From an uncultured virus (IMG/VR IMGVR_UViG_3300005683_000076) (taxonomy: Duplodnaviria; Heunggongvirae; Uroviricota; Caudoviricetes), in the IMG/VR virus record IMGVR_UViG_3300005683_000076: DNA of 20,000 nucleotides; one strand, 5' to 3'. Below are positions 3-13,575 of this stretch, piece by piece. Within the stretch, counting starts at the first letter, position 1. Each line of letters opens with the position of its first letter. Made by a program: the position numbers and the translations under genes. Below the pieces are notes generated by a model. The model saw only the letters and a program-made list of their open reading frames with translations. It made no database searches and was not told where the DNA came from.

Positions 3-3000
3 GTAAGTAGACTCACCGAAGACAAACTCCCCAGCGGTTTTGATCGGACCAAGAGCCTGTACTACTCGGTTGACTGGAGCTTTCACGCCTTCAGCTATCT
101 TATCTATTACCGTAGCCCTGCCGTCTCTCACTTCACTAATATCTGAAACTATATCTCCCGCATCAAACCAGTCCATCGCATCCCGCAAAGCCGTATCCGC
201 CTGAAACACCCTAGCCGTCCCATCCGGATTAGTGCCCACGATCAGGTGTGGACGCTTGCCTACGTCTGTCTTCATTAGCTGGTCTTCAAGATCAGGGAAT
301 ACCAAGTGATTCCACGCATTGATCGCAGCTGTAATGGCCATTAATTGGGCAGCACGTTTAGTTCCTACCAGTGCTACCTTACCAGCCACCTTCGTGCCTG
401 CCATTCCAGCAAGACGCGACTTACCACCTGCTTCATTCGGTATGTTAGCTATCATACGTACGTACCTGGGAGCGTTGATCTCACAGTTTCCTGTAATCAT
501 TACCTTTCCGTCCTGCCGCATGATCCACGTACTGTTGGCTGTCTTAGGGCACCACACCTGTCCGGTGTACTGCTCTTCAGTTCTCTGCCACTTGTGTACG
601 GAAATCTTATCCCTCCCTTTAACATACAACGCTGCGTGACCGGTTCCGCCCCTCTTATCGCGGATGTGGCCAGCCTTACCTAGCATGTAGCACAGGATCT
701 GGAACCCGTCCAGAACTGGTCCGCGGTTTTGCGGAAACTGTGTGGCTCCATTAGCTGAAGATCCTTCTGCCCGCATCATTGCGTCGTACATCGCCCGACA
801 CTCAGCCTGCCCCAATCTAGTGATGACTGACGGGAGATCTTCCTTTGTCTGGAAGACACTTCTGATTTTAGATATCTTCGGAGCAGACAACCTGAAACAA
901 ATTACCCCTGTCTGCGGGTGTACTGACTCAGAACTAATGTAGTCCTTAAATGTGTCGCGGATCCACTGAACCTCACCAGGCTTTTTCTGGTACAGCACTG
1001 CCTCGAACGAGTTAGGTGATTCTTTTCTAGTTCGAAAGTACCCGTCTGTAACTAAGAATCCTAGCAATGCCGCCTCAGTTTCATTGAGCACACTGCCGGT
1101 TGAGAACTCGTGCGGAGCTACAACAGGTAATTTGTGATGAGATTTGAGATCTTTGGCCAGAACAACTTTTCTCTTGTCCTTATATTGTTCGATGACCACG
1201 CAGCGGTGATCGGGAGTAAACTGGTACTTATGGCCAAAAGAATTATTCAGCGTTACCAGCGGCCCATCATAATCTAGCACGGCTTTATCTTGTACCGGCT
1301 GCCATTCCGTTGTCCGGGTCTCGATGTTGTAAGTTAACACTTCCTCTCCAAGAGCCAGCTCATCGTGGGCCTTCCACCCATCCCTAGTCAGGATCTCCGT
1401 GGTCGTAGGAACACACCACGAGTAGAAGGGCATCATATGTTTACGTATAGCTCTACCCGCCTCAGATATACCGCCGTAGTCGCCTACCAGTTCTCTAGCT
1501 ATCTTTGCAGCCTGCCTTCCTGGATTACCAGCAAGAGCATCCACCTGTCCGCGATTTGACGCACCATAGATAACATCCCCGTTAGCCAACCGTTGCTTGA
1601 TGTGCCTGTAAGCGGCCAGCCGGATCCAGTTCTCTCTGGCATTAGAGCTGTTCTTCATGGCATCCCACACCTTGTTCAGTCCTCGACTGAGAACATTGGT
1701 GTCTGAATCCGCAAAGATCTTAAACACACCGAGCTTACTGATGTCCGGGATCTCAGCAAATGTCTGGCCGGAATCCATCACGCCGTCCTTGATCGCCTGC
1801 TCGATCTCTGCAGCGGCCGCATGGTTCTTATCCCTACTGTACTTGTAGATGTCTTTAATAGCGGCCGGCAGCTCCTTTATAATTCCCGGGTACGCCATTG
1901 CAGCATCAAGGTCAGAGATGAAGTTTCTGATATTGTAAGACAGGTAGTTCTTCGGGTTGATCAGTGCCCACTGCTTCCACGAGGCCATAGCACTAGCCGT
2001 GGTCTGCTTGATAGCATTCTCGTGAGGCTGTACCTCGAAGTTGTCCATCAACTTAGCGACACCACTAGGAAGTACCCACTCAGGTTTCTTCTGCCCGCGT
2101 GCCAACGCTTCCCTCAACTCAGCCTCAGCTGTACTGAGAGTGTGCTTTCCGGAAAAGATGTCAGTCAGAAGTTCATCCGGAGCAGACATCACCTTATAGA
2201 AATAACTACCTTCCTGTGGCTGCCAGATCCTGTGAGTGCTCTTATCGACCAGCGTGTGCCAGTCGACGCCTTGTATCTTAGCCTGCAGCTTTAGATCGTC
2301 AGATATATCTACTGCACGTTTGATCTCTTGCAACAACTCGTACTTGCGTATCTGGGCGTGTGCCTGGGAGAGCCACTCCACCTCAGCTTCTACGTAGTTG
2401 GTGTTATAATCATCCCCATCACCGGTACGCTTCTTTTCAAATCCTTTCTTTCGTACACGCAGGTCACGATTGCCCATGCTCAGGAATAGGTTGTTCTCTC
2501 CTCCCTGCGGCACTTGTCGGTGGAAGTAGCTGTCGTTATTAAGGGCCTGCTCTCCGAGCATGTCGATCTTCACCAGATCACCGACCGTCTTTCTACGCAA
2601 CGCCTCCCTGTCCGCAAGAGCTTTAGAGATGGCCGGGTCTGCTTTAGCTGCATCCTCGTATTCCTTCAAAGACTTCTCTACGTCAGCAAGATCAATGTAC
2701 CCGTGACCGGGCTTCATTCCCTGCTCCACGGCCTTCTTCTTGTCCCGCAAGATAAGCACATTCTCGAACACGTCGTACTGTTCCCGGCTTAGAGGTTTGA
2801 TAATTCGAGCTACGTCATTGGTAGCTTGGGTCTTAGCCCAGCTGTTCAAGCTTGAGAGCAGCCGGAAAGAGTCCGCGGTTCTGGCCATCTGCACACTCTC
2901 GTTCGGATCGATCTCCTTGAACTGCCGCTTGAACTCTCGATAGATGTTGACTATCCGGTCCGCGATCTTCTGAGGGCTGGTCTCCACGTCCATGCCTCTG

Positions 3001-6000
3001 GCCTTTGCCATCCTCTCGGCAGCCACAGGGTTGGGGTTGGTGGCTAGAGGAGTACCAGTAGATTTCCGCGGCTTCCAGAATGCAGCCAGCTGCGGGAAGT
3101 TCTCATCGGTAAATGCCGACACTTCGTCCACGGCCTTCTTATCGAAGACTCTCTTGTCCTTCAGGGCCTGGGCGAACTGGATGCGACTGACGTCGATGTC
3201 CTCACCCTTGAAGATCACGTGGTTGTGGGTTTGTTTCTTAGGGTATTTGACTGTGAAGTCGGCAGTATTCAGGGCCTGAAGTTCCGTGAGTTTTTGCTTG
3301 TCCCACTCACCAGTAAGGGTCTTGTACGCCCAGTTAATAGCTTCTGTTTTTGCAGCTTCAATATCTACAGGCTTACCATTATTTATCTGGTTCTCTATGT
3401 TTGCAGCTACCCACGCAATAGCAGATTCTTTTGGAGTTACCTGGCCGCTGAACCTGGTAGGCTTTCCTGAGTACAAAACCTCTGGAGGTTTCCTACTGTT
3501 CTGGTCCAGGAACTTCAGACCCTTAATGCCTTTATCCTTCAGAAACTCACTGGCCAGTACATCTCCTCCACCTTTCTTCGACAGGAGTCCAAGCTGAGTG
3601 GTGCGGTCAAACTCTCGAGACATTCTCTTGTAGAGTTGTTCTCCGGTCCTGCTAACAGGATCATTCACACTGGGGTTGTCAGCGTCGTAGAAGTCATAGC
3701 CTCGACTATTATCAAACTCTCTGGCAATGTCTTGAATGTGCTCACCCTGGTCCTTGATTTGCCTGTCCAGGTGCAACAGGTCTTCATCCTTTACGTTTGT
3801 CTTGATGTGGTAGAGGTAGCCTGGGTGTGGCTCCGGCATCTCGATATCAAACTTGTCTGGATCTAATTGTTGGTAAGCCTCCACTACTTTTCTGTAGTAT
3901 TGCAATTTCAGCTTTGTGATCGCCATCCCGGGAGTAAGCTGGCCGGCCTTGTCTGCTTCTTCAAACCTGGCAATCTCCGTCTCGTACCAGTCGATCTGAT
4001 TTTGTATTGCCTCCTTAGCGTCTACCCGATTGTTATCCATCGCGGTAAACGTGCCCATTATGGCACCATTACGTAGGCTATCTGCGTCTGACGCTCCGGA
4101 AGCTTTGGCGTTATAGTCGAACTCCTTGCCGTCGTAGAGGAATCTTGGATTTGCATTGTCATGTATCCCAGCCTGCCTGTAAGTGCTAGCAACTCCGTGT
4201 GTCTCCGCAGCGTAATGCCCGTATCCGCGGAACTGTGAACCCTCACCTGTGTTGATCTTATCGTCACGGATGCGGCCGAGTGGGTACTTCTCGATCACCT
4301 TGTAACCTTCTGGGATCTGTGGGAGCCAGGAGTCTACGGAATGGAGCTCGCGCCCTGCCCTCTTAGAAGGGATTGCAAAGTCCTCAGGCTTTAAAGACTT
4401 GATAAACTCCACTGCACGGTTTTGGCTTATGTAATCATGTAGTGGAGCGTGAGTATTATTGTCTCTCCAGTGTTCCGCTGTTTTGAGTTGCTGAGACAGG
4501 GAGTCAGCAATAGATTTTGGTCGTTTAGGGTGTGTGACTTGCTGTTCGATAGCCTGTAGAATTTTCTGCTCTCCAATGGAGATCTCTTGGTCGGAATCAT
4601 ACAACCCCTTGCCACGGAATTTCATACCCTTTTCAGGTTTAGTCCGGACAATAATGTTCTCCCCTCTTCTGGACACACGCGTACCCACAGGGAACTTCTT
4701 CTGTTCTCCTTCAATGTACTTCCTCTCACCGTTAGGGCCTTCAACTAAGACTTCAGGTTTGAATAAGTGACGAGATCCGTGCTTGAGTTGGGCGAACTGA
4801 GGATCAATACTTCCGCCACTAGCTCTCCGCTTATTGAACTCAAGGATCGGACCGTACTTGTTACGCAGAGCTTCGATCTTCTTCTGGAACAGGGCCGAGC
4901 CAGAGCTCTGCATGTTAATTGCATCCTGTTCGTACCGCTTAAGTACTCCCTCCACGGCTTTGAACTGATCGCCGCCGGCATCTTTGTAAGCCTGACGTAC
5001 GTCCCTGTCCACTATTTCGTCGACAGTCTTGTCGGCAGCGGGGCGTGTATCAGACAGTTCGGCAAGCCTTTGTCGTTGTTTCCAGGCTTCGATGTTCGGA
5101 TCAGGTTTAGCAGGAGGTTGCCACTCTTTGATACCCAGCTTTTTATTGATAGCCTGAACATTCTTCAGATGTGCCTCTCTGGACTGTACGCTCCAGGGAT
5201 CTTCCTTGGCGACAGGAGTGCTAGGTTCTTTTGCTTTAGGAGTGGACTCTTTAGGTGCTTTGGTCTTGACCTGTTTAGCAACCTGGTGAGTATTGTAGGC
5301 CGTGTTCGCTTCAGCAATATCCTGAAGGTACATGCCATTATCCAGGAGGACAGACTCGTAGTCTCTAATAGCTGCGTCAACGTCAGTGCCAAACCGATGG
5401 TCCTCGCCTATGACGGAGTCAAGCTGTTCTCTGGTGACTTGGCCGCTTCTTTTTAATTGGTCTAGCTCCTTAAGCTTCTCGGTAATGAGGGCATTGTTGT
5501 GCTCGGCCATGGCCCTGACCACAGCTACACTTTCATCTGTTGGAAATACCTGCTGGCCCTGTACCCAAATCTTACCGTCCTCAAGCACACTTCCACGCTC
5601 GACAGCATTCGGATTCGGGACATACTTGCCGGTCTTCTTCGGAGCGGCAGGAGCAGCCGTGACCTCTTCAAAGATCTCCTGGTTGCGTGCTTCGGCCCCG
5701 GCCTTGACCGCGGTCTCCGGGACATCTACCCAGGCACGCTTGTCACCTAACGGTAACTCAGCTCCTGTCTCCAGGGCATCCTTCAGATCGAAGATGGCTC
5801 CACGTGGACTACGCCCATAGGAGTGCTCAGGGTTCCCTAGGATCTCCCCGATCTGCTCCCTAGTAGGAGCGCCCTTAGCCTGGAGCTCTTCTAGTTCCTG
5901 GATTGCCCGAGCAGCACGCCTTTCAAGTTCGGTCCGGTCGGTGACTTGGGAGAACCTTGGCTCGATAGGGCCTTCTCCACCTGGTCCAGTACCTGATCCT

Positions 6001-8936
6001 CGTTCAGCTGTCCCTCTGGTATCAGGCGAACTATGTCGTATGCCAGGTCCAGCCCCTCTTCCCCGAACTCCTGGTGTATTGCTCCCAGCAGCAGAAACCT
6101 CCGATGGCTTTCCTCCCGCCACTGGCTGTTGTTGTTTTCTTCTTGCATATAGGTTAAGTAAGTGCCCACGTCTGGCAAACTTAGTGGCAGCAGGGCTTAC
6201 ATCCTTGAGAGATGATGCGTACTGTAGGGTGTTCTCGTTATTCTCAGCCAGAACACGGAACACGTCTTTCAATGTTTGTTTGATTTCGTCGGTGGTCAGG
6301 CCTAGGTGCTCTTCTGCTTTCGGGCGGAAGGTCTGGGCGATCACCTCGTCCATTGCGTACGTGTCCTTTCTATTAGGATCACGGCCTTTGATTATATCAA
6401 ATACTTTCTGGACACTAGGCTTTTCAAGAAGCTTTGGCGTCTGTGCAGTAACACCGAAGCGTTCGTTCCGGATGTGGACACGCTCCTCAGCCTTAGTACC
6501 CTGCGTGATGTCGTCAAGGCCTTCGTACTTAGTGTAGAGTCCTGCCTCTCCAGCTGTCCGCTTCGTGACGTCGTTGATCTTGGCGATGAGATTCGAGATC
6601 TCCACCATCGAGGACGCGTCCTTTGCGAGCTGGGCCTGGTCGAGCATATTCTCCAGCTGCTTGATGAAAGCTCCGGAGTAGTTCGCGTATAGCGGCAACC
6701 CGTGGAAATCTCGGTAGCTGCCTGCATTTCCCTGCTCCTCTGCTATGTTTTTAAGCAGGTGGTTCAGGACAGCAGTGGCTTGCGGGTTAGCAGCAATAGC
6801 ATCAGGACCGTCCACGGTGAGGTCTGCTTCTCTAATGAGTTCAGACATGGGACGGTTCATCTCTTCGATGATCTTGTTGGAAGCGGCTAACTCCTGCTTG
6901 TTGTACGGAGAAAGGATCTCAACGTCAGCTACTTCCCCTTTAGGTACTTGTACTTCTTTGGCATTACCCTGCGGGTCTATCTGAAAAGCAACTTCATTGC
7001 CGGCAGGGTCTTTCGCTCGTACAGTTCTCCCGGCTAGCACTGAAACAGCATCCCCGAGACTAAAGATCGTATTGAAGATAGTTTCCTTGAGGGCCGTCTT
7101 AGGGTCCGCACCGGATGCCCGGCTTACCGGATAAGTAGCTGCACCCGTGAACGCCAAGGTTGCTGCCCCACCGCCGAGCTTGCTAGCTGCAGAACTGAAG
7201 CCTGCCTCCTCCAGCCCAGCCATCCACTTCTCGCCAACCGGTCCAGCATACTTAGCGATACTTCCGAATATGGCACCCTTAAAAGCCTCACTTGCGACTT
7301 TGTCAAAGTGCTCACCTCGGCCGGCTGATTGGGCAGCCATGTCAGCAGACATACCTGTGATCATTCCACCAGGCAGCTTAGACAGCAGCATGATCCTCGA
7401 GAGGTCTCCAGGCAGAGCACCTGCCATCTGGAAGATCTCGGCACGAGTCCCGCCGTACTTAGCCAACTTCTCAGCCGGAGCCTCAGAGGTCGCAGCGATC
7501 GAAGACATGTACTTGTAGATGTCGTCTCCCTGGTACGCCTTGATGTCTTCAAACTTGGAAGGATTGATCAGCCGGTGACCTTCCCCAAAGGGCCTGTGCC
7601 ACAGGTCATCGGCAGCCCGGTAGAGACCAGCCAGATCCCGCCAAGCACTGCCACCTGTACGCAGGGCACCAGCAATAATGTTCTGCTCATCTTCCATGCC
7701 GATCCACGGAGTTTCTAGTGCCTCAGTAGGTGTGATCGTGGAAGCCTTCAACGCATTGATTACTTCAGGAGTCAGGAGATTCTCAGGCGGGATCTGTTCA
7801 ATACCCACGCGAGACTGTGCCTGCCTCATCCGTTCGTCGGTCTGAGCTGCATCCTTGCCCTTGATATTCTCAAGGTCCTTAAGCGTGATCCAGATAGTAC
7901 CTTCAGTAGTATCATCATCAATTCTACCTTTCACCTTATACTGCCTACCAAGTTTAATGCCTTGCTCGATCTGGTCTGGGGTAAGGTCAAACTTGGTAGC
8001 AACAGATTCATAGGCCTTTCGGATGGAGTAGTCTAGCTTTTCCGCAGTGGGAACTCCCTGAACATTGACGGTAACTTTTGCGGCAATGCCGTTGCTGTCG
8101 GTAGCCTTACCTGCCTGACGCGGAAGATCCACTTGTACACCGGTATCAACAAACTGGCCGGCGGACGTGTCGATCGGAGTCAGGTTCCCGACGTCCACGG
8201 TGACAGTTCCTTCACCTACCGGAGCTTTAGGTTTAGCTTTGATCGGAGCCGCAACCTTATTTTTCCTAGGTTGGAGTGTCGGTCTGTTGGACGGTATAGA
8301 CGAATTATCTAGTGTGTTTGTATTTACAGGGGCATACCCTGGAGCGGGATTGGTAGGTGTGGTAGCGGTACCAGTTATTAAGGTCTCGATCTTCTGCTTG
8401 AAGTTGTCATCAACCTCCGGAGATGCAGGAGAGATCAAGCTCTCGAGGTGGGCCCTAAACTCGTCATCGCTGACAGTGGTAGGAGCAGCAGGAGCACTGG
8501 CCTTGACCTGTCCCGGCAAGATACCTTGAGCCGCCAGCCTCCTCTTGGAATTTAACCAGGCGTCAAAGCCCTGCTTCTTGTAAACATCGAGGGCAGCCTT
8601 TGCATTGTAAACAGGATCAGTAGCCAGCTTCTGCGGATCGTATTGCGGGTTGGCAAGAGTGTTGATTTGCCACAGTCCGTAGGAAGACTCTGGAAGTTTC
8701 TGTCCTTCACCTGCCCTGCGTACACGTGTGGCCCCCGGGTCGCCAGAGCTTTCCTTCAATGCCATTTCTGTCATGTAAGGGACGTGCTCTTCCGGCCACC
8801 CAGCCTGTCGAAGAATGTTCTCGAGATCCGGACGTGTATAAATGGAAGGAGCCGGCCTTGTGGGGGTCGGCTTTGGTTCCAGTTTCTTGAGCCCGCCCAG
8901 CAGGCTCTTCAAGAAGTCGTCGTCGTTGTTTACCAT
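3..8936 (-). CDS. Giant (>=2978 aa, 3'-truncated by window) polyvalent internal virion/ejection protein with lytic transglycosylase, ART-like domain and intein
   Basis: ATG at 8936 directly follows TAG TAA of the upstream gene. Manual translation (MVNNDDDFLKSLLGG...GPIKTAGEFVFGESTYP) shows no stop down to the window edge, which explains its absence from the ORF track. Multiple recognisable motifs lie in this single frame. Confidence 0.93.
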   Translation of the reverse strand, partial: MVNNDDDFLKSLLGGLKKLEPKPTPTRPAPSIYTRPDLENILRQAGWPEEHVPYMTEMALKESSGDPGATRVRRAGEGQKLPESSYGLWQINTLANPQYDPQKLATDPVYNAKAALDVYKKQGFDAWLNSKRRLAAQGILPGQVKASAPAAPTTVSDDEFRAHLESLISPASPEVDDNFKQKIETLITGTATTPTNPAPGYAPVNTNTLDNSSIPSNRPTLQPRKNKVAAPIKAKPKAPVGEGTVTVDVGNLTPIDTSAGQFVDTGVQVDLPRQAGKATDSNGIAAKVTVNVQGVPTAEKLDYSIRKAYESVATKFDLTPDQIEQGIKLGRQYKVKGRIDDDTTEGTIWITLKDLENIKGKDAAQTDERMRQAQSRVGIEQIPPENLLTPEVINALKASTITPTEALETPWIGMEDEQNIIAGALRTGGSAWRDLAGLYRAADDLWHRPFGEGHRLINPSKFEDIKAYQGDDIYKYMSSIAATSEAPAEKLAKYGGTRAEIFQMAGALPGDLSRIMLLSKLPGGMITGMSADMAAQSAGRGEHFDKVASEAFKGAIFGSIAKYAGPVGEKWMAGLEEAGFSSAASKLGGGAATLAFTGAATYPVSRASGADPKTALKETIFNTIFSLGDAVSVLAGRTVRAKDPAGNEVAFQIDPQGNAKEVQVPKGEVADVEILSPYNKQELAASNKIIEEMNRPMSELIREADLTVDGPDAIAANPQATAVLNHLLKNIAEEQGNAGSYRDFHGLPLYANYSGAFIKQLENMLDQAQLAKDASSMVEISNLIAKINDVTKRTAGEAGLYTKYEGLDDITQGTKAEERVHIRNERFGVTAQTPKLLEKPSVQKVFDIIKGRDPNRKDTYAMDEVIAQTFRPKAEEHLGLTTDEIKQTLKDVFRVLAENNENTLQYASSLKDVSPAATKFARRGHLLNLYARRKQQQPVAGGKPSEVSAAGSNTPGVRGRGAGPGIRHSSPDTRGTAERGSGTGPGGEGPIEPRFSQVTDRTELERRAARAIQELEELQAKGAPTREQIGEILGNPEHSYGRSPRGAIFDLKDALETGAELPLGDKRAWVDVPETAVKAGAEARNQEIFEEVTAAPAAPKKTGKYVPNPNAVERGSVLEDGKIWVQGQQVFPTDESVAVVRAMAEHNNALITEKLKELDQLKRSGQVTREQLDSVIGEDHRFGTDVDAAIRDYESVLLDNGMYLQDIAEANTAYNTHQVAKQVKTKAPKESTPKAKEPSTPVAKEDPWSVQSREAHLKNVQAINKKLGIKEWQPPAKPDPNIEAWKQRQRLAELSDTRPAADKTVDEIVDRDVRQAYKDAGGDQFKAVEGVLKRYEQDAINMQSSGSALFQKKIEALRNKYGPILEFNKRRASGGSIDPQFAQLKHGSRHLFKPEVLVEGPNGERKYIEGEQKKFPVGTRVSRRGENIIVRTKPEKGMKFRGKGLYDSDQEISIGEQKILQAIEQQVTHPKRPKSIADSLSQQLKTAEHWRDNNTHAPLHDYISQNRAVEFIKSLKPEDFAIPSKRAGRELHSVDSWLPQIPEGYKVIEKYPLGRIRDDKINTGEGSQFRGYGHYAAETHGVASTYRQAGIHDNANPRFLYDGKEFDYNAKASGASDADSLRNGAIMGTFTAMDNNRVDAKEAIQNQIDWYETEIARFEEADKAGQLTPGMAITKLKLQYYRKVVEAYQQLDPDKFDIEMPEPHPGYLYHIKTNVKDEDLLHLDRQIKDQGEHIQDIAREFDNSRGYDFYDADNPSVNDPVSRTGEQLYKRMSREFDRTTQLGLLSKKGGGDVLASEFLKDKGIKGLKFLDQNSRKPPEVLYSGKPTRFSGQVTPKESAIAWVAANIENQINNGKPVDIEAAKTEAINWAYKTLTGEWDKQKLTELQALNTADFTVKYPKKQTHNHVIFKGEDIDVSRIQFAQALKDKRVFDKKAVDEVSAFTDENFPQLAAFWKPRKSTGTPLATNPNPVAAERMAKARGMDVETSPQKIADRIVNIYREFKRQFKEIDPNESVQMARTADSFRLLSSLNSWAKTQATNDVARIIKPLSREQYDVFENVLILRDKKKAVEQGMKPGHGYIDLADVEKSLKEYEDAAKADPAISKALADREALRRKTVGDLVKIDMLGEQALNNDSYFHRQVPQGGENNLFLSMGNRDLRVRKKGFEKKRTGDGDDYNTNYVEAEVEWLSQAHAQIRKYELLQEIKRAVDISDDLKLQAKIQGVDWHTLVDKSTHRIWQPQEGSYFYKVMSAPDELLTDIFSGKHTLSTAEAELREALARGQKKPEWVLPSGVAKLMDNFEVQPHENAIKQTTASAMASWKQWALINPKNYLSYNIRNFISDLDAAMAYPGIIKELPAAIKDIYKYSRDKNHAAAAEIEQAIKDGVMDSGQTFAEIPDISKLGVFKIFADSDTNVLSRGLNKVWDAMKNSSNARENWIRLAAYRHIKQRLANGDVIYGASNRGQVDALAGNPGRQAAKIARELVGDYGGISEAGRAIRKHMMPFYSWCVPTTTEILTRDGWKAHDELALGEEVLTYNIETRTTEWQPVQDKAVLDYDGPLVTLNNSFGHKYQFTPDHRCVVIEQYKDKRKVVLAKDLKSHHKLPVVAPHEFSTGSVLNETEAALLGFLVTDGYFRTRKESPNSFEAVLYQKKPGEVQWIRDTFKDYISSESVHPQTGVICFRLSAPKISKIRSVFQTKEDLPSVITRLGQAECRAMYDAMMRAEGSSANGATQFPQNRGPVLDGFQILCYMLGKAGHIRDKRGGTGHAALYVKGRDKISVHKWQRTEEQYTGQVWCPKTANSTWIMRQDGKVMITGNCEINAPRYVRMIANIPNEAGGKSRLAGMAGTKVAGKVALVGTKRAAQLMAITAAINAWNHLVFPDLEDQLMKTDVGKRPHLIVGTNPDGTARVFQADTALRDAMDWFDAGDIVSDISEVRDGRATVIDKIAEGVKAPVNRVVQALGPIKTAGEFVFGESTY
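486..1415 (-). mobile_element. Intein (310 aa) with LAGLIDADG homing endonuclease, in frame within giant protein
   Basis: Block A CVPTTTEILTRDGWK (Cys1 1413-1415); block B FTPDHR; LAGLIDADG-like helices LLGFLVTDG and MYDAMMRAEG; block F YTGQVWCPKTANSTWI; block G MITGN followed by +1 Cys (483-485). Exteins rejoin as PFYSW/CEINAPRY. Confidence 0.93.
3189..4781 (-). other. ADP-ribosyltransferase-like (ART-PolyVal-type) domain with large insertions
   Basis: Ordered motifs: KHGSRHLF; PLGRIRDDKINTGEGSQFRGYGHYAAETHGVASTYR; GYLYHIK...LLHLDRQIKDQ; TGEQLY; ASEFLKDKGIKGLKFLDQNSR; THNHVIF. These match the HGSPH / IGTGEGAQAYGxGLY / LDWDKPLSEQ / GIxGIKYLD / NYVVF pattern I recall from phage polyvalent proteins. 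Confidence 0.72.
5891..6148 (-). CDS. Nested (overprinted, +1 frame) small acidic helical protein, 85 aa from ATG 6148
   Basis: MQEENNNSQWREESHRRFLLLGAIHQEFGEEGLDLAYDIVRLIPEGQLNEDQVLDQVEKAL... has globular amphipathic composition, while the host frame over the same span becomes a G/R/P/S/T-rich linker (AGGKPSEVSAAGSNTPGVRGRGAGPGIRHSSPDTRGTAERGSGTGPGGEG). AT-rich leader before the ATG. Confidence 0.6.
   Translation of the reverse strand: MQEENNNSQWREESHRRFLLLGAIHQEFGEEGLDLAYDIVRLIPEGQLNEDQVLDQVEKALSSQGSPKSPTGPNLKGVLLGQSRN
6330..6500 (-). other. Degenerate zincin/MPTase-like motif region of giant protein
   Basis: TKAEERVHI (EExxH in place of HExxH, aa 817-821) followed 43 aa later by MDEVIAQ, resembling the downstream Glu helix of polyvalent-protein metallopeptidases. 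Confidence 0.45.
8547..8840 (-). other. Lytic transglycosylase (lysozyme-like/SLT) domain of giant protein, aa ~33-130
   Basis: MALKESSGDP (catalytic Glu62, 8751-8753), SYGLWQIN, DPVYNAKAALDVYKKQGFDAW match the E-S, GLxQ and downstream motifs of SLT/lysozyme-like domains. Confidence 0.88.
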
Positions 8937-11652: not shown

Positions 11653-13575
11653 TTAATCCTCGGGCAGCTTATAGTTATGAACGCCTATGTCGTTCTGCCA
11701 AAAGCCTTTCTCGGTTCCTTTTAGTGAGATTTTTACGGTGTGTCGTTTTGCGAAATGTTTGATTACAGCGTCTACTTTAACTATACCATTTCTAGTTAAT
11801 ATAGTATCATATTCTGTCAAGCGGTGCAAGGGCGTACCTACAAAGTCTATATCACTTGTGAATACCGGGTGTGACTTAGAAGCGGTCAGCTTATAGTTCC
11901 CGGCTATTAAAGTATAGACGTCCTGCGGAGGTATTACCTGCGTCTCATAATCCACTGGAAAACCGTTCCTGTTTATGATCTTGTACCGGTGCTGGCTATC
12001 TACCAGATCTACAGCCTTGATAGGTCCGTGGTCCGTTTCGATCAGATCATCAAATACCGGGCAATATCCGCCACCACCCGGGGGTACGTTTCCACCACCT
12101 CCACCTGAAGTACCTTGGTCTCCGCTGGTAGGAGCAATAGATACTCCACGCTTAGCCTCAAAATCTAACGGGCACCTGGTGAACAAACCGAACTTGTCAT
12201 CTAAAGACACAAGATCCACTAACAGTGCGTGATCAGATCCGCTGCCACTGAACCCAGTGTCCATTCCCATGACTAACCACTGCTTGTCCGAGGTGTTACC
12301 TAGGTTGTAGTCACTGGGAACTACGATATTCATGCGGCCAACTCTCCATTCGAGAGCAGATGCCGGCCTGAAGTTTGCAGCAGTTACCTGGGTCTTAGCG
12401 ATGTGCCTTAGCCTGGTCGGAGTAGGAAAGCCTCCTACGGTGTTGTTAGCCGTGCCGTAGTCGTAATAGGTATTGGCCGGGTAGGGGAACTTTAATCTTT
12501 CATACGTAGCACCGGTCTTCCTGTAAACTTCAGTTCGGACTACTCCAGGTTCCTGCGGCCACGACAGCTCCACGTAATTGGTAGTACTGAGCGTGGCATT
12601 AGTGTTTGCTATTGTCAGGGTAGTTGTACTGATCGTTGACCCGTCGGCCATGTACATCAGGACCATATAGTCTCTCGATGTCGCACCGGTAGTACCCTGC
12701 TGTGATCCTGTAAGGGCAGGCCTTTGTCCTTCGAGAAACTTCCTCTGGCCGGCGGAGTTGTCCCAAAGCCCACCAAAGAAATCTACGAACACCTCGTCCT
12801 CTCCACCTACCTGCCCGCTAAGCTTATAAATAAACGTCAGAATGTATTGCTTTGACGGGACTATCGTGTTGTATGCCAGTGGAAATGTCAGCGTATTCGA
12901 CGCGTCACTCCACCTGGCCCAGCCGTTGGTCTTGTCATAATCCGGATTACTTACTGTAGTAGCATACCGGGTATGAGTCGTGGTCTTTAGAGCTGTGTTA
13001 GTAGCAAGATTCGCATCTGCATTAACGTCGGTAGAGTCTTCTTTTAACTGTAAAAGCCTGAAGCGTACACGCCCGTTAGTTACCGTAGTAGAAGCCGCGA
13101 CTGCTAAAGTACAAGTAGTAGATGATCCTGGAGCACCGTTGATCGTAGTGACCAGGTCCGCACCAGCCACTCCGGCACCATAAACAACTATCTCCTTGCC
13201 TGCGTCACCAGCCACAAAATCAGCAGTATCGATAGTAAGAGCAGTAGATGCAGCCGTGACTGATCCAGTGGTGTCAATGCAAGTATCTTTCGGGTGAGCG
13301 TAGACATGAGCTGCTTCAAGAGATACGTTACCGTCCTCCCCCGTACCTCCAGCAAAATCAGTAGTATAGAGATACCTATTACGGTCGAAGTGAAAGTCTC
13401 CATTTCTAATGTGATTCTGGTGCCCGTACTCCGTAGCAGAATTTGCATTCTCTATCACGGTTTGCAGAGCACCCCCCTGCTCCTGCTGGATAGTAGAGAG
13501 TGCCTTGATCTGTCGCTCCAGGGACTGTACACGCCCGAGGAATTCAACTGTATTTAGATCTGTCGGAGTCGGCAT
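11653..13575 (-). CDS. Tail-associated structural protein (640 aa) with C-terminal Hint autoprocessing domain
   Basis: N-terminal coiled coil, T/G/A-rich beta domains including an FN3-like segment (NYVELSWPQEPGVVRTEVYRK), poly-Gly linker, then Hint domain. Confidence 0.85.
   Translation of the reverse strand: MPTPTDLNTVEFLGRVQSLERQIKALSTIQQEQGGALQTVIENANSATEYGHQNHIRNGDFHFDRNRYLYTTDFAGGTGEDGNVSLEAAHVYAHPKDTCIDTTGSVTAASTALTIDTADFVAGDAGKEIVVYGAGVAGADLVTTINGAPGSSTTCTLAVAASTTVTNGRVRFRLLQLKEDSTDVNADANLATNTALKTTTHTRYATTVSNPDYDKTNGWARWSDASNTLTFPLAYNTIVPSKQYILTFIYKLSGQVGGEDEVFVDFFGGLWDNSAGQRKFLEGQRPALTGSQQGTTGATSRDYMVLMYMADGSTISTTTLTIANTNATLSTTNYVELSWPQEPGVVRTEVYRKTGATYERLKFPYPANTYYDYGTANNTVGGFPTPTRLRHIAKTQVTAANFRPASALEWRVGRMNIVVPSDYNLGNTSDKQWLVMGMDTGFSGSGSDHALLVDLVSLDDKFGLFTRCPLDFEAKRGVSIAPTSGDQGTSGGGGGNVPPGGGGYCPVFDDLIETDHGPIKAVDLVDSQHRYKIINRNGFPVDYETQVIPPQDVYTLIAGNYKLTASKSHPVFTSDIDFVGTPLHRLTEYDTILTRNGIVKVDAVIKHFAKRHTVKISLKGTEKGFWQNDIGVHNYKLPED
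11674..12063 (-). other. Hint (intein-like/BIL-type) domain, aa 505-634, no endonuclease
   Basis: GGGGY/CPVFDDLIETDHGPIKAVDL (Cys at 12061-12063), block B LTASKSHPVF, C-terminal TVKISL...FWQNDIGVHN followed by YKLPED-stop. Confidence 0.85.

Follow-up and report, generated by a model that had tools for sequence, protein, structure and literature searches.

The prevailing view is that inteins occupy only positions at which a Cys, Ser or Thr already follows. One of the closest described systems, the haloarchaeal MCM-d intein, undergoes a Pro-to-Ser co-conversion at its +1 residue, which the available text describes as rare, with a near-negligible rate of invasion (PMC10643990). In phages, inteins have been published in minor capsid, portal, tape measure and baseplate wedge proteins (bioRxiv 10.1101/2025.01.02.630785), and a non-enzymatic virion host is thus not new in kind; those of crAss-like phages are described mainly in terminase (PMC7886860). 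Large polyvalent proteins join several disparate enzyme domains in one polypeptide, in a paper whose text does not contain the word "intein" (PMC5512222). Our search of the literature found no published intein in a polyvalent or ejection protein, a point on which supplementary host lists could bear.

Here we analyzed a 20,000-nucleotide stretch (hereafter the window) of a 67,276-bp virus record (IMG/VR IMGVR_UViG_3300005683_000076). The conserved C-terminal domain of a polyvalent protein, likely packed in the virion, contains a full-length LAGLIDADG intein for which splicing is predicted and active homing likely, and we consider it probable that upon invasion it overwrites the codon downstream of its insertion site with a Cys codon of its own. 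The sequences show its anatomy, the empty alleles, the patchy spread, a recent transfer between hosts and the match between the filled state and a +1 nucleophile.

Host Protein and C-Terminal Domain

The intein-bearing gene runs on the minus strand and comprises the following features.

3..8936 in the window (G000:C1:46580-56212), minus strand: host gene, a large polyvalent protein of 3210 aa, the last of the virion-side operon
8559..8813, minus strand: lysozyme-like SLT_3 domain at the N terminus of the host (E 8.7e-12 to Pfam PF18896, better than its cut-off)
3..2315, minus strand: C-terminal all-helical, LPD38-like domain, split by the intein and continuing past the window's left edge (model, BFVD, Atlas)

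The gene shares one strand and, across the contig ends, one run with terminase, major-capsid-like and tail-spike-like genes; PHROGs gave no name to eight virion-side genes upstream. SLT_3 is the sole enzyme-type domain that profiles name in the window's own host protein. The 358 residues preceding the intein, used as a query, retrieved 28 proteins of 2000-4900 aa that are large polyvalent proteins as PMC5512222 uses the term, many of them with helicase, methylase, InPase or ART-PolyVal domains; overall, homologs of the C-terminal domain bear helicase, methylase, InPase, ART-PolyVal, LPD1 and LPD5 domains. The homologs known in full vary in length by hundreds of residues (2576, 2816, 3197 and 3210 aa), and the cargo region is mosaic, with 198 bases (window 2449-2646) swapped for a diverged block of the same length in run X4. 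A host segment at window about 4050-4300 (minus strand) resembles the ART-PolyVal motif, with no Pfam match.

Modeled in its empty state (P0004 stretch, 65 sequences), the C-terminal domain is mostly helical (pLDDT 88). It has no PDB match, by sequence or by Foldseek, and a wide VIA structure search matched only its last helical hairpins (Z ≤6.8), a result that speaks neither for nor against a likeness to solved ejection proteins (T7 gp16, P22 gp16, N4 gp50). Pfam, PHROGs and NCBIfam gave the domain no name, the Pfam LPD38 model (PF18857) matched none of the 65 domain members at E 0.01, no cultured phage matched by tblastn, and neither profile nor structure searches returned an enzyme for the helical domain. 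BFVD yielded 75 matches to the empty domain at E 0.001 or better, many of them named large polyvalent or LPD38, and Atlas sets an empty homolog beside LPD38 clusters (0.97, with recognition below the tool's bar). These fold matches and clusters support the label "LPD38-like" and nothing narrower.

One fold relative, A0A482MT02 of phage PTXU04 (BFVD match rank 25), is inferred from its length to be PTXU04_00025, a protein needed for infection (bioRxiv 10.1101/2023.09.18.558157). The LPD38 protein phi24B gp47 belongs to the virion proteome, and its ejection has been proposed (bioRxiv 10.64898/2026.04.10.717836). By analogy with these two relatives, the host protein is likely needed for infection, packed in the virion and ejected into the host cell.

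Anatomy of the Intein

486..1415, minus strand: intein of 310 aa, Cys1 to Asn310, a Hint splicing domain into which a LAGLIDADG endonuclease is inserted (sequence and model)
612..1094, minus strand: LAGLIDADG homing-endonuclease domain, intein residues 108-268 (I-DmoI alignment, Z 10.4)
1044-1046, minus strand: catalytic Asp124, Asp in 50 of 50 family members
765-767, minus strand: catalytic Glu217, Glu or Asp in 48 of 50 family members
1206..1217, minus strand: block B TxxH, Thr67 and His70, both invariant in 50 of 50
549..551, minus strand: Cys289, block F position 4, Cys in 50 of 50; a class-3-like residue, though Cys1 is kept

Window positions 486-1415 (minus strand) read as 310 codons without a stop, in frame within the open reading frame 3..8936. 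The insert begins with Cys1, ends in Gly-Asn, contains TxxH and is followed in the extein by Cys, its junctions reading PFYSW/C1...GN/CEINAPRY. Pfam Intein_splicing matches it weakly (E 2.4e-5, under the curated cut-off), and the Pfam scan gave no LAGLIDADG HMM match. The AlphaFold model, computed from 35 sequences at pLDDT 96, superposes on three full-length, endonuclease-bearing inteins over 295-301 residues: TliVMA (7qsu; Z 24.2, rmsd 3.8, 295 residues aligned), 2cw8 (Z 21.8) and PI-PfuI (1dq3; Z 21.2); residues 108-271 superpose on I-DmoI. The insert is a genuine full-length homing-type intein, for which splicing and DNA cutting are predicted. An assembly artefact is ruled out by the open frame, by a GC content of 0.50 against 0.51 in the flank and by copies in other studies, the filled allele lying within single contigs of two of them (runs X3 and X4). 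Contigs of four runs contain no intein-skipping joint, a result that speaks for presence only.

The class 1 hallmarks are present, namely Cys1, Thr67/His70, Asn310 and Cys+1 in a Hint fold with a two-motif LAGLIDADG domain and its two catalytic acids, and Cys1-initiated (class 1) splicing is predicted from them; the penultimate Gly variant splices in the phage Bethlehem gp51 intein (PMC5050341). We also considered a class 3 mechanism. At the positions of the WCT triplet the window intein has Cys72, Cys289 (assigned by eye, with block numbering after PMC2807308) and Thr308, and the full W-C-T triplet occurs in 26 of 53 relatives. Class 3 was not adopted because the N-terminal nucleophile is present and Cys1 is invariant (50 of 50 family members); moreover, the window copy, with Cys in place of Trp, lacks the triplet. 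Only three WCT inteins with Cys1 or Ser1 were known to PMC2807308, whose available text leaves their mechanism open.

The same genome holds other elements of this kind.

G000:C1:9724-12495, 36781-39558 and 43014-45704: three further intein-type inserts (L002-L004), in terminase, primase-helicase and DNA polymerase A

Of these, the insert in primase-helicase appears to begin with Ala, as in class 3, yet has Cys at +1. Separately, a 640-aa gene (11653-13575) encodes a Gly-rich linker followed by a 130-aa end piece (window 11656-12063, minus strand) with Cys first and His-Asn last, then Tyr and five residues. Judged by its sequence, this piece resembles a self-cleaving tail of the Hint type that lacks a +1 nucleophile, a likeness for which Pfam and a profile comparison gave no support.

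Insertion Sites and Intein Family

1416..1430, minus strand: PFYSW motif; site b, which holds the window intein, lies after Trp, and site a two codons upstream, before Ser
1473..1484, minus strand: GDYG motif, the other most conserved window; in homolog P0033 the corresponding motif holds a third intein site
483..485, minus strand: +1 codon TGT (Cys), the only extein cysteine and one that the intein likely put in place; both nearest empty alleles have Met

Conservation was scored over 11-residue windows across the last 1000 residues of 126 empty homologs, a set filtered by motif that excludes 12 of 158 proteins; on this scale the GDYG window (3.75 bits) and the insertion-point window (3.73) are the top two of 989 (median 1.95). 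The +1 column is the weakest of PFYSW-x-EINAPRY, at 2.13 bits, and in the domain model the insertion point falls within the first turn of a helix predicted to span 16 residues. The initial annotation, made from the DNA alone, had described a complete LAGLIDADG-type intein at PFYSW/CEINAPRY, in the helical C-terminal region of a structural or injected protein with no known catalytic role and at a conserved site. The intein, its helical setting and the conserved site are borne out: the junctions lie where they had been placed, the frame is open and the fold matches reach Z 21.2-24.2; the region is modeled as helical and matches no enzyme; and the insertion point ranks among the two most conserved windows.

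Intein searches retrieved related elements from many giant proteins without Pfam names: 50 protein copies of 296-338 aa, of which 34 lie at site a and the other 16 at site b. Adding loci and dropping one duplicate brings the family to 53, all at the two sites two codons apart; the search favors full-length copies, and mini-inteins could therefore be missed. Site a divides PFY from a native host Ser or Thr, which serves as nucleophile, and site b follows PFYSW. A distant host subfamily holds 39 of the 53 members; for 11 of these 39 the domain profile matches at E <1e-3, with junctions in register. In P0033, a distant host, two different inteins (residues 859-1177 and 1196-1516) stand 18 residues apart, and P0078 (1892 aa) has a related intein at residues 1418-1746, a position that presumably is a lytic transglycosylase motif, with no Pfam match. 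Three insertion sites cluster in the GDYG-PFYSW segment and mark it as the likely indispensable core of this uncharacterized domain, which occurs in giant ejection-type proteins of phages and has no solved structure.

On the intein tree, site-a and site-b copies are interleaved, with eight site changes among the 53 rows, and a single site-b clade is rejected (p-AU 6e-59). The closely related L133 (site b) and L136 (site a) share TCT as +1 codon, so a two-codon shift carrying the Ser codon could explain where a site-b nucleophile came from. Such sliding from a to b is speculative, and recombination between inteins accounts for the interleaved tree equally well.

Filled and Empty Alleles

Among the 28 homologs, 24 have a colinear empty junction, two are filled (the window protein and P0006) and two are unreadable at the site; the intein-free alleles that the initial annotation had suggested looking for do exist. 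An IMG/VR motif scan, which took 120 of about 130 loci and is blind to alleles filled at site a, found site b filled in three and empty in 117; IMG/VR queries with single exteins found no loci. P0004 and P0005 are 98% identical to the window protein and empty, and empty relatives of filled alleles reach 98-99% identity. An extein tree, built without the intein and without the +1 column, comprises 207 N-extein rows, 193 of them empty and nine filled at site b, and needs eight changes, a number that cannot tell gain from loss.

The +1 residue follows the state of the site. It is Cys, Ser or Thr in all nine rows filled at site b but in only 11 of 193 empty ones, and Cys in six of the nine versus none of the 193. 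Across the 117 empty IMG/VR loci (from the 120 of about 130), it is Met in 51, Leu in 23, Ile in 20, Thr in seven, Gln and Val in five each, Asn and Ala in two each, and Tyr and Ser in one each; an empty allele with Cys at +1 was found in IMG/VR neither in these loci nor by direct scan. The annotation had asked whether intein-free alleles have Cys, Ser or Thr here, and the answer, mostly not, is one it did not predict.

Close pairs of filled and empty alleles agree. Of seven independent pairs on the extein tree, 6.6 switch in the same direction and none in the opposite (median p 0.016); a test restricted to Cys falls short of significance (p 0.06). In a direct comparison that covered seven of ten close pairs, the window protein has Cys where P0004 has Met, with 14 differences in 600 aa, and L130 has Cys where P0198 has Ile, with four differences in 600 aa; L126 likewise has Cys where P0212 has Ile, and L133 has Ser where L035 has Gln. 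Another such pair is P0031 with Cys and P0012 with Met. Each of these switches requires two to three base changes. P0089 has Thr at +1, as does its nearest empty relative. Cysteine is otherwise scarce in these hosts: 126 empty ones have 69 Cys in 316,040 aa (0.02%), 103 have zero, and P0004 and P0005 have none.

Transfer, Tract Length and Scars

Between L130 and L167 the intein sequence changes at 8 of 933 nt, while the flanks are 70.8% and 60.5% identical, and more generally inteins 98.4-99.1% identical occur in hosts 60-71% identical. Near-identical inteins in divergent flanks indicate recent transfer. Outside the intein, identity in the L130/L167 pair extends over 15 nt upstream and only 2 nt downstream; read from these sequences, the downstream tract is no longer than part of the +1 codon. 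With a two-base tract, Cys results only where the third base of the codon is C or T, as in 40 of 104 empty site sequences. In a further 45 of the 104 the codon is that of Met, and since two bases would turn ATG into Trp, Met hosts, the window's included, need at least three. The window differs from both of its nearest empty relatives at two additional positions, -7 and +13, differences seen at the protein level that may mark a longer tract in the window. As side observations, six of the eight amino-acid differences between the L146 and L130 inteins fall in the endonuclease half (residues 200-271), and L157 (intein bases 48-207) and L167 are mosaics that point to recombination between inteins.

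A metagenome scan for Cys-EINAPRY gave 42 matches: ten filled alleles from three hosts, one of them identical to the window, 31 unrelated sequences and a single empty allele with Cys, L156. The latter (TGT) differs from the empty L026 (GTT) at 6 of 3600 nt, three of which lie at -4, +1 and +2. This pattern fits a scar of intein loss or of aborted homing; as L156 was found through a query containing Cys, the difference at -4 is the only one that this query did not impose (p of about 0.02). Twelve of the 42 matches (L141, L143, L145, L147, L153, L155, L159, L163, L168, L171, L176 and L181) belong to an unrelated 200-aa family that natively has the nine residues of the site-b junction; the three scanned fell in phrog_6721, with one weak Thy1 match. 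We rejected this ThyX-like family as a source of the Cys junction: no filled copy was found in it, and the match is partly forced by the search pattern.

Discussion

A +1 nucleophile that tracks the filled state, transfer between hosts and the Cys scar together argue that the intein likely homes actively and co-converts the +1 codon. We propose that its endonuclease would cut the empty PFYSW-x-EINAPRY site of a co-infecting phage, a step for which recent transfer between hosts is indirect support. Repair off the filled allele would then copy the intein along with two to three flanking bases. Recombinants retaining Met, Ile or Leu at +1 would not splice and would be lost, because the host protein is probably needed for infection. 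The spliced product would be the protein of the empty allele but for one junction residue, a single Cys at the motif's least conserved position. A broader version, to which we give even odds, makes the mobile unit the intein plus its +1 codon, with routine invasion of sites lacking Cys, Ser or Thr, the only Cys placed into an otherwise Cys-free ejection protein, Cys scars left upon loss, and several shifts between sites a and b that carry the Ser codon of site a.

Homing could instead proceed in the ordinary way, entering only the rare alleles that already have Cys, Ser or Thr at +1 and leaving the codon behind. Such alleles exist: the 11 empty rows with Ser or Thr and the lone Cys allele L156 mean that some invasions may have used them, and 7 of the 30 distant hosts with a filled site a carry a native Thr or Ser in the site-b position. 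Two hosts whose inteins are 99% identical also differ in the third base, TGT versus TGC, which points the same way. As a general account, however, this is unlikely. It would need independent Cys changes of two to three bases in at least five lineages of a family so poor in Cys; the commonest residue of filled alleles is the very one absent from the empty rows and loci, and few filled rows have Thr, which among ready-made nucleophiles is the most frequent. We give still less weight, regarding it as quite improbable, to an ancestral intein lost many times by recombination with empty alleles and homing little at present. Related inteins in two distant host subfamilies, change counts that do not tell gain from loss, the resemblance of L156 to a scar of precise loss and a 4-base repeat shared by the window's intein start and +1 codon would agree with it; yet inteins so nearly identical sit in such divergent hosts, 193 of 207 rows are empty, the catalytic residues are conserved, and the L130/L146 pair already contradicts it.

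The initial annotation had further suggested that splicing could gate virion maturation. An intein kept as a switch timing maturation or ejection of the virion protein would be in keeping with the interruption of a predicted helix in a conserved domain, which would make splicing a requirement, and with several intein cysteines that could sense redox state. Its rarity, patchiness and mobility nevertheless make a regulatory gate hardly credible: 3 of 120 loci (of about 130) are filled at site b, relatives 98-99% identical do without the intein, eight gains or losses are needed on the tree, it moves between divergent hosts, endonuclease residues are intact in 48-50 of 50 copies, and the three other inteins in ordinary hosts of the same genome suggest an intein-rich niche. 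The intein is best read as a selfish element. The annotation's view of the site as an unusual intein target stands as regards its conservation but was overstated as regards the host, inteins of non-enzymatic virion proteins being published (bioRxiv 10.1101/2025.01.02.630785).

A widespread phage intein thus appears to evade the +1 nucleophile rule repeatedly by rewriting the next codon, and near-identical natural alleles in filled, empty and scarred form open tract length and the invasion of new sites to direct tests. Among known systems, LPD38 polyvalent proteins resemble the host in being giant late-region proteins with a lysozyme and, as seen in the host's homologs, variable enzyme cargo (PMC5512222), and in their conserved helical C-terminal region of the same predicted fold; unlike them, the window-type domain is not matched by the Pfam LPD38 model. 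The intein resembles the WCT inteins that keep Cys1 or Ser1 in combining Cys1, the block F Cys and the block G Thr, and departs from them where the window copy has Cys instead of Trp (PMC2807308). Its best matches among cultured-phage inteins include those in methylase, portal, terminase and polymerase genes (23-29% identity). In architecture and size it is like the class 1 LAGLIDADG inteins of actinobacteriophages with penultimate Gly (PMC5050341; bioRxiv 10.1101/2025.01.02.630785), which also include near-identical copies in divergent exteins and a pair of sites, TerL1-a and TerL1-b, one residue apart; in contrast, the available text of their lists includes no polyvalent or ejection-protein host and notes no rewriting at +1. 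It represents a new intein allele family in an LPD38-like ejection-type domain. It stands out from ordinary new members in that, on the best reading, it has rewritten the +1 codon repeatedly, as natural pairs of near-identical alleles document. In this it is like MCM-d as described in PMC10643990, with a nucleophile at filled sites, mostly none at empty ones, and an invasion that would need +1 co-conversion; it differs in that nearly every sampled invasion of site b appears to involve conversion (Met, Ile or Gln to Cys or Ser), in its host, a phage virion-type protein, and in a DNA-level tract of about two to three bases.
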